UHGV virus genome: UHGV-0110227
Reading direction: 5' to 3' (one strand)
Source: a virus
Length of the DNA stretch: 25,293 bases
This document shows positions 2,286 through 4,162 of the stretch, piece after piece. The notes beneath the pieces are model-generated. The model worked only from the letters and a program-made list of their open reading frames with translations. It was not told the origin of the DNA and searched no databases. The translations under genes and the position numbers were made by a program. Positions within the stretch are counted from its first letter, which is position 1, and the number at the start of each line of letters is the position of its first letter.

Positions 2286-2501
2286 ATGAACAACATTGCC
2301 AACGAACGGAAAAAGCTTGGCATCACTCAATCTGCGTTAGCAGGCGCGTGTGGCTGGAACCAGTCCCGCTTAGCTAACTACGAGTCAGGTATCCGGACTC
2401 CAGATTTAGAGTCGTGCCGTCGCCTGGTAAAGGCGCTGAATAAATTGGGGAGCAAGACAACGCTAGATGGCTTGTTCCCGCCGGAACACAAAGCCGCTTA
2501 A
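2286..2501 (+). CDS. cro: Cro-like HTH regulator (71 aa)
   Basis: First gene of the rightward operon. HTH LGITQSALAGACGWNQSRLANYESG is clearly paralogous to the HTH of the adjacent repressor. AAGGA SD. Not the lambda Cro sequence. Confidence 0.8.
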   Translation: MNNIANERKKLGITQSALAGACGWNQSRLANYESGIRTPDLESCRRLVKALNKLGSKTTLDGLFPPEHKAA

Positions 2502-2620: not shown

Positions 2621-2917
2621 ATGGTTCGTGCAAACAAACGCAACGAGGCTCTAAGAATCGAGAGTGCGTTGCTTAACAAAATCGCAATGCTTGGAACTGA
2701 GAAGACAGCGGAAGCTGTGGGAGTTGATAAGTCGCAGATCAGCAGGTGGAAGAGGGACTGGATTCCAAAGTTCTCAATGCTGCTTGCTGTTCTTGAATGG
2801 GGCGTCGTTGACGACGATATGGCTCGATTGGCACGACAAGTTGCTTCGATTCTCACCAATAAAAAACGCCCGGTGTGCAAGACCGAGCGTTCTGATCAAA
2901 TACAAATGGAATTTTAA
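2621..2917 (+). CDS. cII: Transcriptional activator CII (lambda-type)
   Basis: Translation from ATG 2621 (MVRANKRNEALRIESALLNKIAMLGTEKTAEAVGVDKSQISRWKRDWIPKFSMLLAVLEWGVVDDDMARLARQV...IQMEF, 98 aa) matches lambda CII as I recall it. AAGGA SD upstream. The ORF track starts 60 nt too far upstream at 2561. Confidence 0.93.
   Translation: MVRANKRNEALRIESALLNKIAMLGTEKTAEAVGVDKSQISRWKRDWIPKFSMLLAVLEWGVVDDDMARLARQVASILTNKKRPVCKTERSDQIQMEF
2630..2643 (-). promoter_or_regulatory. CII-binding box TTGC-N6-TTGC of a pRE-like leftward establishment promoter
   Basis: Minus strand reads TTGCGTTTGTTTGC, overlapping the 5' end of cII exactly as in lambda pRE. Confidence 0.8.
2861..2890 (-). terminator. Leftward intrinsic terminator inside the 3' end of cII (oop-type)
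   Basis: Minus strand reads ACGCTCGG-tcttgcaca-CCGGGCGT followed by TTTTTT. Confidence 0.75.
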
Positions 2918-2928
2918 CAACATCCAAC
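2861..2928 (-). ncRNA. OOP-like short antisense RNA overlapping the 3' end of cII
   Basis: Perfect -10 hexamer TATAAT on the minus strand (plus coordinates 2935-2940) about 70 nt upstream of the oop-type terminator, in the arrangement of lambda pO/oop. The -35 is weak (TGGATT). 5' end is inferred. Confidence 0.5.
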
Positions 2929-2939
2929 GAGGTAATTAT

Positions 2940-3212
2940 ATGCGAAACAAAGGCTTTAATCCACCTGATACACACAAAGAAGCTAAGCGTTTGAGCTTCC
3001 TTCGTTCCATTGATGAAAGAACTCAAATCTCTTTTGTGAAAGTTGCCAGAACTGAGCTTCTGAAGGCTGAGGCGAGGGCGTTGATCCCGTCTCTACCAAA
3101 AGAGGAGGGATATACGTTCATTCCAAACGCATTTCTGGAAAAGCTGCTCAAAGAAGACATATCCGTAAGTCAGTTTAACGATGTTCTTAAGGTCTTTCGT
3201 CAAGGCAGGTAG
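2940..3212 (+). CDS. Hypothetical protein (90 aa) between cII and the replication initiator
   Basis: ATG at 2940 with GAGG SD; translation MRNKGFNPPDTHKEAKRLSFLRSIDERTQISFVKVARTELLKAEARALIPSLPKEEGYTF... Stop lies 2 nt before the next gene start. The track ORF 2664..3212 is an out-of-frame upstream extension across cII. No family recognised. Confidence 0.6.
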   Translation: MRNKGFNPPDTHKEAKRLSFLRSIDERTQISFVKVARTELLKAEARALIPSLPKEEGYTFIPNAFLEKLLKEDISVSQFNDVLKVFRQGR

Positions 3213-3214
3213 TT

Positions 3215-4162
3215 ATGAGCAATACAGCAAAAATCTACGATTTCAGCGCCGCACACGAGCGCAGGAGCAACAGGATGGAGAACCAGAAAACTGGTTACAT
3301 TCCGTTGTACCGGAGCATTCTGAAACAGTCATGGGCGAAAGATGTTTATCTTCGCACCCTGTGGGAAAACCTTCTCCTGAATGCCGCCAGAAAGCCATAC
3401 AAAGCGAATTTCAAAGGTCATGAATGGCATCTGCAACCCGGTCAACTGGTTGTGACAGCAGCTGATTTAGGTCTTCAGTTATGCGACAGGCATGGCAAGC
3501 CGGCAAGCCGTGATCAGGTTGAGCGGATGCTTCAGGTTTTTGTGAAAGAGGGGATGATCACCATTGATGGAGAGAAGCAAAAAGGTCGTGTGATCACCAT
3601 CACAAATTACCATGAATATGCTCAAAAAATGGACAATTCACCCGCACATGAAGCCGCACAAACAACCGCACATGATGCCGCACATGATGAAGCCAGTAAT
3701 GGCGCGGCTTTCAGCGTACATTCCGCACATGAAAGCGCACATGAAGCCGCACAAACAACCGCACATCATGAACAAGAAGGTATTAACAAGAATATAAATA
3801 ATACCCCCCTACCCCCCAATGGGGGAGGCGATGGGCAGGTTAAACATGAACGTCGCAAGGCAGAACGAATCGACTACGAATCCTTCCTGAACGCCTACAA
3901 CACCGAAGTCGGTGACAGACTGCCACACGCTGTTGCGGTCAACGAGAAACGCAAACGCCGCCTGAAGAAAATCATCCCGCAACTGAAAACGCCAAACGTG
4001 GACGGTTTCAGGGCGTATGTCAGGGCGTTTGTACATCAGGCCAAGCCGTTTTACTTCGGAGACAACGACACTGGCTGGACGGCAGATTTTGATTACCTGC
4101 TGAGGGAAGATTCGTTAACGGGAGTACGGGAAGGGAAGTTTGCAGACAGGGGGATAGCATGA
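3215..4162 (+). CDS. Replication initiation protein (lambda O / P22 gp18 functional class) with an internal repeat linker
   Basis: 315 aa, sited directly upstream of a DnaB-type helicase gene. Central AH(E/D)A peptide repeats are encoded by DNA iterons. Stop overlaps the helicase start (ATGA). Confidence 0.75.
3642..3825. other. Putative origin of replication inside the initiator gene: eight 12-bp iterons (core CCGCACA) in two clusters, an AT-rich tract, and a G/C hairpin
   Basis: Iterons at 3642, 3654, 3666, 3678 and 3723, 3735, 3747, 3759 on a strict 12-bp register. A 31-bp direct repeat lies at 3643-3673 and 3736-3766. AT-rich 3771-3805. CCCCC-aat-GGGGG hairpin at 3813-3825. Same architecture as lambda ori within O. 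Confidence 0.65.

Follow-up and report, generated by a model that had tools for sequence, protein, structure and literature searches.

The window analysed here, the 25,293-nt UHGV virus genome UHGV-0110227, contains the early region of a P22-like, lambdoid phage in which an open reading frame (ORF) of 90 codons, ORF90, separates cII from the replication initiator gene and begins at the edge of a leftward, oop-type promoter element. We favour, with modest confidence, an account in which two ordinary lambdoid elements are superposed at this point, a pO/oop antisense unit and a gene in the slot between oop and the initiator, the latter most likely serving the replication module as a dispensable accessory factor; an accessory function unrelated to replication and a leader or coupling role are ranked behind it. 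The gene order of the window (cro, cII, antisense oop, a small orf, an O-like initiator with internal iterons, helicase) is the lambdoid cII-oop-orf-O-P order, and it is identical to the general order cII-oop-'orf'-O-P given by Hayes et al. (2012) after Clark et al. (2001) (PMC3349717). The window has a conserved boundary block spanning the oop 5' end, pO and the ATG in keeping with that scheme, and differs from it in that its 'orf' occupant comes from a family unnamed in Hayes et al.

The predicted pO/oop antisense unit

The minus-strand -10 element and the terminator beyond it form what sequence comparison identifies as a conserved OOP-type antisense unit homologous to lambda oop (coordinates in Table 1). 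The 3' end of cII and the hairpin within it align with lambda oop, in the same position antisense to cII, and tO lies inside the coding end of cII as in a lambda-type oop unit. With its ends placed by register with lambda, the predicted RNA would be 69 nt long, compared with 77 nt in lambda, and 58 nt of it would be antisense to the cII 3' end, with a predicted fold of -20.3 kcal/mol (z = -2.84); its 5' end abuts the Shine-Dalgarno (SD) sequence of the next gene, as in lambda, and leaves that SD uncovered. Across 10 sequences the 9-bp core stem of tO is 96.7% paired, two pairs having changed on both sides (AU/GC/UA and GC/UA), and its covariation score was matched by 0 of 500 shuffles, with slid registers falling to 40-50% pairing; one compensatory change entails a non-synonymous change in cII. 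An Rfam scan of the whole window returned no family at gathering score. In the P22-like Salmonella prophage BTP1 an OOP homologue, OOP(BTP1), has been detected by RNA-seq (PMC7067206). These results uphold much of the original prediction, which had been made from the letters of the sequence: the 90-aa frame at 2940..3212 with a GAGG SD, ending 2 nt before the initiator; the perfect minus-strand TATAAT at 2935-2940 overlapping its ATG, an overlap that amounts to the A of the ATG alone; the oop-type terminator near 2861-2890, whose hairpin, with its compensatory changes, we place at 2863-2893, followed by a U run; and an OOP-like RNA of about 70 nt.

The -10 hexamer of the putative pO is a perfect TATAAT, invariant in relatives and in register with lambda and P22, but the candidate -35, TGGATT, agrees with the consensus at 3 of 6 positions and is both different from and weaker than that of lambda. 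This tells against an active promoter, as does a generic sigma-70 promoter scan that called none at pO, an omission explained by the weak -35. The bare hexamer is not significant either, occurring 4 times in the window against 7.8 expected, so that with TATAAT unenriched and the -35 weak the case for the promoter rests on comparison with relatives. The comparison centres on a 14-nt block, AATTATATGCGAAA, which is the longest invariant run in ~550 nt among 8 loci that are otherwise 52-90% identical per 30-nt segment; the spacer and SD-flanking bases beside it vary among loci. Immediately to its right lies a mosaic boundary, other E. coli prophages losing homology at 2947 and carrying a 47-aa ORF instead, and among 27 loci of an IMG/VR sample that have the block together with the oop terminator, 19 start ORF90 and 8 start the 47-aa ORF. 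One metagenomic relative (L015, 3442-3790) has an extra 84-aa gene between a short cII and ORF90; there the -10 block is unchanged and precedes a different hairpin, rich in GC, and an oop-like RNA would oppose a gene other than cII.

To have an ATG within the promoter of the antisense RNA is normal in lambda- and P22-like phages, where this layout has been described before, and presents no new conflict. The pO -10 of lambda, CATAAT, reads ATTATG on the opposite strand, and the O start codon falls within that hexamer; pO -10 mutations have been published at 38683-38687, the O ATG being at 38686 (PMC5869508), and Olszewski et al. placed their pO- mutation 2 bp away from the first codon of O (PMC3985674). 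The same authors showed convergent pR/pO interference, with O protein slightly up when pO was inactivated (PMC3985674). P22 shows the same layout with a small gene in between: in its record (NC_002371) the oop terminator is annotated at 32277-32319, the oop promoter at 32346-32374 and orf48 at 32349-32495, so that orf48 starts within the annotated promoter, and it overlaps gene 18 by 8 nt. The original prediction had foreseen a physical conflict between translation initiation of ORF90 and antisense transcription; this is the convergent-promoter situation known from lambda as the pR-pO 'dual promoter system', in a layout that P22 orf48 shares. The family of orf48 is PHROG 1913, and its relatives include HK620 hkaW and Sakai Sp5 ECs_1188, a 48-aa homologue with CATAAT over its ATG. 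The slot genes of Klebsiella phage Mulock (a 265-aa ParB-type helix-turn-helix (HTH) protein) and of a Yersinia phage (a Rha/KilAC antirepressor) likewise have a minus-strand CATAAT or TATAAT at their start and a hairpin upstream.

P22 shares its genus, Lederbergvirus, with the closest matches of the window, the phages JEP4, HF4s, Gally and CUS-3, and ORF90 is placed like orf48, as a small ORF between a cII homologue and the initiator, with its start codon in the oop promoter and its end abutting the initiator start. This likeness is one of position and not of family, as ORF90 has no match to PHROG 1913, belongs to a different protein family, is twice as long and carries an O-like C-terminal motif. 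The window further differs from P22 in its consensus -10 and in an oop 5' part ~10 nt shorter. As in lambda, the -10 and the region where translation of the first downstream gene starts overlap; unlike in lambda, that gene is ORF90 and not O itself, and a LexA-site-like CTGTATT..CAT, found at pO in lambda, lies at the initiator start (~3215-3235).

We envisage that pO, with its -10 in the ribosome-binding region of the first gene after cII, would direct a leftward RNA of ~69 nt ending at tO inside cII. By analogy with lambda, where the lowering of CII depends on RNase III, this OOP-like RNA would pair with the cII mRNA at its 3' end and lower CII, and convergent firing of pO would damp the pR transcription that enters the replication genes.

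Conservation and distribution of ORF90

ORF90 is, by the pattern of its substitutions, a genuine conserved protein-coding gene. Pairwise ratios of non-synonymous to synonymous substitution rates (dN/dS) are 0.06-0.17 among seven loci with 68-88% DNA identity, the variable columns at codon positions 1, 2 and 3 number 28, 26 and 78 of 90, and no relative has a broken frame, the other two frames carrying 2-10 stops. Every third of the protein is constrained, with ratios of non-synonymous to synonymous differences (pN/pS) of 0.32, 0.20 and 0.15 for the successive thirds, comparable with the 0.19 of the DNA-binding domain of the initiator; the C-terminal third is the most constrained, and the protein stays 90 aa long even where synonymous divergence is saturated.

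The protein and the phrog_2519 profile match along their full length (E 8e-56; residues 1-90 against profile positions 1-90 of 90), which makes ORF90 a member of PHROG 2519. Among 5.8 billion proteins searched, its homologues formed 34 clusters confined to the Enterobacteriaceae; full-length members share 69-98% identity, and nearly every one is exactly 90 aa long, with one 86-aa Salmonella variant. The family is small, comprising 15 clusters at 50% identity in an exhaustive profile search of 1.84 billion representatives. The gene is present in 278 of 5,426 complete E. coli genomes (~5%), including E2348/69, where its annotation is always 'hypothetical protein', and in 57 phage records, 49 of them from Stx2/Stx2a-converting phages (48 labelled Stx2a-converting); the same annotation is found in JEP4, HF4s, Kapi1, Gally, TL-2011a and many Stx2a phages. 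In every recovered locus ORF90 stands after cII and ahead of a rep_O-type initiator, 23 nt from cII in 10 of 11 distinct contexts, and the initiator is followed in most loci by a DnaB-type helicase and in one (L010) by a lambda-P-type loader. A search for related loci with narrower alignments contributed only two further loci, from metagenome-assembled genomes.

Membership of PHROG 2519 and frequent occurrence in E. coli genomes and phages mean that ORF90 is no orphan, as it had been called; the family is already catalogued but uncharacterised, a literature search aimed at ORF90 having turned up no characterisation of it. The original prediction would have been undermined by a failure of conservation, and the gene has the same place and the same length even in relatives that are only 69% identical; the statement in that prediction that lambda has no gene between cII and O is also correct. 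We propose that ORF90 fills the variable 'orf' slot between oop and the initiator, of which P22 orf48 is the classic occupant and for which lambda has none, and that it uses a start site belonging to the conserved cII/oop/pO boundary block. Relationship to the larger Mulock and Yersinia slot proteins was considered and rejected, the matches being short, local and unconvincing. A likeness of the ORF90 3' end to lambda cII-O intergenic DNA proved specific to the window save for ~12 nt before the ATG and was not used.

The ORF90 protein, its junction with the initiator and its possible role

The 2-nt gap between the ORF90 stop and the initiator ATG (3215), together with an initiator SD that falls within the last ORF90 codons, makes translational coupling of the two genes probable; at other slot genes the stop overlaps the initiator start. 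The junction block (Table 1) has a sliding identity across loci of 0.85-0.93 (~90%), compared with ~0.72 inside ORF90, and its variation lacks a third-position bias (4/6/8 of 20), a pattern that suggests constraint on the nucleic acid itself or a boundary of recombination. As a further link to replication, ORF90 stays on the side of the initiator where cII has been swapped, the homology of Stx2a phages to the window beginning at 2852. Most gene callers choose a second in-frame initiator ATG at 3275, which has AGGAG (3263-3267) 7 nt upstream, and alignment favours the start at 3215, from which the N-terminus matches lambda O MTNTAKILNF and which has its counterpart in the coupled starts of the Klebsiella (Mulock) and Yersinia phages. 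Two further ideas about the junction were discarded: a programmed -1 frameshift that would join ORF90 and the initiator in one protein, for which the frames are compatible but inspection of 3191-3212 found no slippery heptamer, and an autoregulatory operator at the iteron-like CCGCACACGA (3249-3258), which does not co-vary with the iterons of other initiator types.

The protein has an isoelectric point of 9.8, and the basic N-terminus and helical character foreseen for it were both found: residues 1-30 hold 7 K/R against 4 D/E, and an AlphaFold2 model from a 19-sequence alignment (mean predicted local distance difference test score, pLDDT, 83.9) is mainly helical, a short hairpin at residues 54-59 separating two pairs of predicted helices (10-23 and 26-51; 63-71 and 76-87). 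An earlier model from 12 sequences was poor (pLDDT 60.7). The homology and structure searches that the original prediction had called for diverged, homology leading to PHROG 2519 and structure to no informative fold match. No Pfam or NCBIfam family was found for ORF90, and a sequence search of the PDB with the family profile gave nothing relevant (best E 0.81).

The lead on function lies in the C-terminal third. Residues ~55-88 align colinearly with approximately positions 4-39 of the Phage_rep_O N-domain (PF04492/TIGR01610), with the common pattern GY..(I/L).N..LE......(L/I)(S/T)..QF..(V/L)L...R, and since this third resembles the first two helices of the initiator, ORF90 may act on the O-type initiator. 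ORF90 matches positions 6-39 of the 95 in PF04492 with E 0.049 and 14.6 bits, against a cut-off of 28.7; sub-threshold matches to the same profile occur in 16 of 19 family members (best E 5.2e-5), an ORF90 homologue matches TIGR01610 with E 0.011 and 16.2 bits, against a cut-off of 45.5, and ORF90 matches phrog_678 with E 0.0078. By the curated cut-off over all 95 positions ORF90 falls short of the whole Phage_rep_O N-terminal domain and is, on these scores, not a member of the O N-domain family; in contrast to the N-domain of lambda O, it lacks the rest of the domain C-terminal to the two helices, and its N-terminal 53 residues are unrelated. Near the other end of the protein, residues 9-27 are colinear with, and weakly similar to, proteins of the orf48 family. 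The motif H[KR]xx[KL]Rx[RQ]F[LY] occurs at codons 12-21 of ORF90 (2973-3002) and at codons 13-22 of P22 orf48 and of Sp5 ECs_1188 (E 0.003-0.02); that three slot ORFs with no other relationship have it equally far from the start could reflect shared leader ancestry or a DNA-level constraint upstream of pO.

Several observations weigh against a role on the initiator. The similarity to the initiator domain lies below every curated threshold, alignment of the ORF90 family with the O N-domain in hhalign gives E 0.031 and a probability of 1.6%, and fold searches with the model returned nothing informative. With just two helices covered, ORF90 cannot be a complete winged helix. Initiators 74-80% identical exist without ORF90 in Klebsiella and Yersinia phages, which have regulators (ParB-HTH, Rha/KilAC) in the slot, and near-identical ORF90 alleles stand beside initiators of different specificity types and iterons, so that there is no signal of co-evolution. 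The last two of these observations lend weight to a first alternative, which we regard as unlikely though deserving serious attention, that ORF90 is a 'moron'-like accessory gene acting outside replication (as a modulator of the lysis-lysogeny decision or an exclusion or anti-defence factor) and simply lodged in a slot where the early right operon tolerates insertions. The slot is variable, and other phages carry the regulators just named (a Rha/KilAC antirepressor or a ParB-type HTH protein) or different small ORFs in it; closely related initiators dispense with ORF90; and ORF90 does not co-vary with initiator specificity or helicase type, its partner being mostly DnaB and in L010 lambda P. 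Against it, PADLOC-independent libraries gave no match pointing to such a function, nor did Pfam or NCBIfam offer a family, the sole sequence lead is to the initiator N-domain, and the close stop-start junction between ORF90 and the initiator keeps ~90% nucleotide identity among loci.

That junction might also be the whole point of the gene. ORF90 could be mainly a translated leader, its strong, conserved ribosome-binding site in the pO block feeding ribosomes to the initiator start and its peptide being nearly functionless, and to this we would give a small chance. Against it, purifying selection on amino acids extends along the whole of ORF90, with a pN/pS of 0.15-0.32 as strong as that of the initiator domain, and the 90-aa length is kept despite saturated synonymous divergence; diverged members, moreover, retain the IPN...QF..L..F motif but not the junction sequence.

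A bolder form of the initiator hypothesis, for which the chance seems to us slim, makes ORF90 a domesticated chimera of an orf48-like leader (residues ~9-27) and the first two O-domain helices (55-88) that acts in trans on the initiator, for example by capping or chaperoning N-domain oligomerisation at ori. If this were true, replication licensing would depend on a start codon gated by pO/pR interference. Finally, the notion that ORF90 is a chance ORF or a decaying stump, left from the 5' part of an O-type initiator gene that was displaced, with a fortuitous TATAAT, could draw on the C-terminal likeness ending where the O N-domain would go on, on the unenriched hexamer and on the weak -35, but it is already contradicted by the conservation data (dN/dS ~0.1, a frame open in all relatives where the alternatives carry 2-10 stops, and an invariant -10 block positionally homologous to the experimentally defined lambda pO; PMC5869508), and we consider it highly improbable. 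The exhaustive profile search, over 1.84 billion representatives, turned up no full-length initiator whose N-terminus resembles ORF90, which leaves the stump idea without a direct donor.

Locus, annotation and significance

The features of the early region are collected in Table 1. The iterons and the AT-rich stretch that follows them have the arrangement of a lambda-style ori within the initiator ORF, and we identify them as such from their sequence; related initiators carry other iterons, CCGCGCATAA and CCATCCGAAGAA.

Table 1. Coordinates of early-region features in the window, listed from left to right.
Feature	Position	Strand	Remarks
cI-type repressor gene	1540-2181	minus	
cro	2286-2501		
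cII, 98 aa	2621..2917	plus	target of the predicted antisense RNA; Pfam Phage_CII, E 3.8e-48; 95% identity to lambda CII
Predicted OOP-like antisense RNA, 69 nt	2860..2928	minus	ends placed by register with lambda oop 38675 -> 38599
tO-type intrinsic terminator hairpin	2863..2893	minus	12 pairs, then U run down to 2860; terminator scan
SD of ORF90, GAGG	2929..2932	plus	7 nt ahead of ATG; kept in nearly all loci
Invariant 14-nt block AATTATATGCGAAA	2934..2947		holds -10, ATG and a conserved rare CGA codon
pO-type -10 hexamer TATAAT	2935..2940	minus	plus strand ATTATA; in SD-ATG spacer; shares only the A of the ATG
ORF90, 90 codons	2940..3212	plus	PHROG 2519; ATG 2940-2942, stop TAG 3210-3212
O-like motif G[YF]xFIPNxF..LLK.D.S..QF..VL..F	3099..3209	plus	codons 54-90 of ORF90; weak likeness to first two helices of O-type N-domain
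Conserved junction block, 75 nt	3196..3270	plus	ORF90 end, initiator SD and ATG, first 19 initiator codons
Replication initiator, 315 aa	3215..4162	plus	Phage_rep_O N-domain, PF04492 E 3.6e-15; phrog_345
Iteron clusters, two of four 12-nt iterons	3642-3689, 3723-3770		core CCGCACATGA; inside initiator gene
AT-rich stretch following iterons	3775-3805		inside initiator gene
DnaB-type replicative helicase, 458 aa	4159..5535	plus	overlaps initiator stop; DnaB_C E 9.5e-78; DnaB N-domain E 4.5e-13

Several annotation problems surround these genes. Upstream of its ATG the ORF90 frame continues without a stop through the cII 3' end, so that an ORF of 182 aa with a GTG start can be read (2664-3212), and an additional in-frame ATG lies upstream of cII at 2561 (2561-2917); open upstream frames of this kind have produced misannotations, among them several database entries of 120-164 aa, and in CUS-3 cII is called as 126 aa and ORF90 is uncalled. 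P22 orf48 (NC_002371 32349-32495; L144 1850-1996) is labelled 'tail protein' in RefSeq and in PHROGs (PHROG 1913), which, given its place between c1 and gene 18, is almost certainly an annotation error. GenBank OR850084.1 (2,692 bp), labelled 'Staphylococcus phage SA 1298 Kay', carries an enterobacterial homologue of ORF90 plus initiator, and its match statistics equal those of Salmonella phage S.Inf 5-2, so that the record is probably mislabelled or a contaminant.

The layout is already documented for lambdoid phages and so contributes no new regulatory logic. What it makes visible is that the SD and ATG of the first post-cII gene belong to a conserved oop/pO boundary block, just after which different replication modules are spliced in, and this block can help in the annotation of starts, as the Prokaryotic Genome Annotation Pipeline leaves the 47-aa ORF uncalled and the start given to the initiator varies between gene callers. 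The practical value of ORF90 itself is modest: it is a well-conserved, strongly constrained and uncharacterised early gene directly upstream of the replication initiator, spread through ~5% of complete E. coli genomes, Stx2a-converting phages and several P22-like phages.
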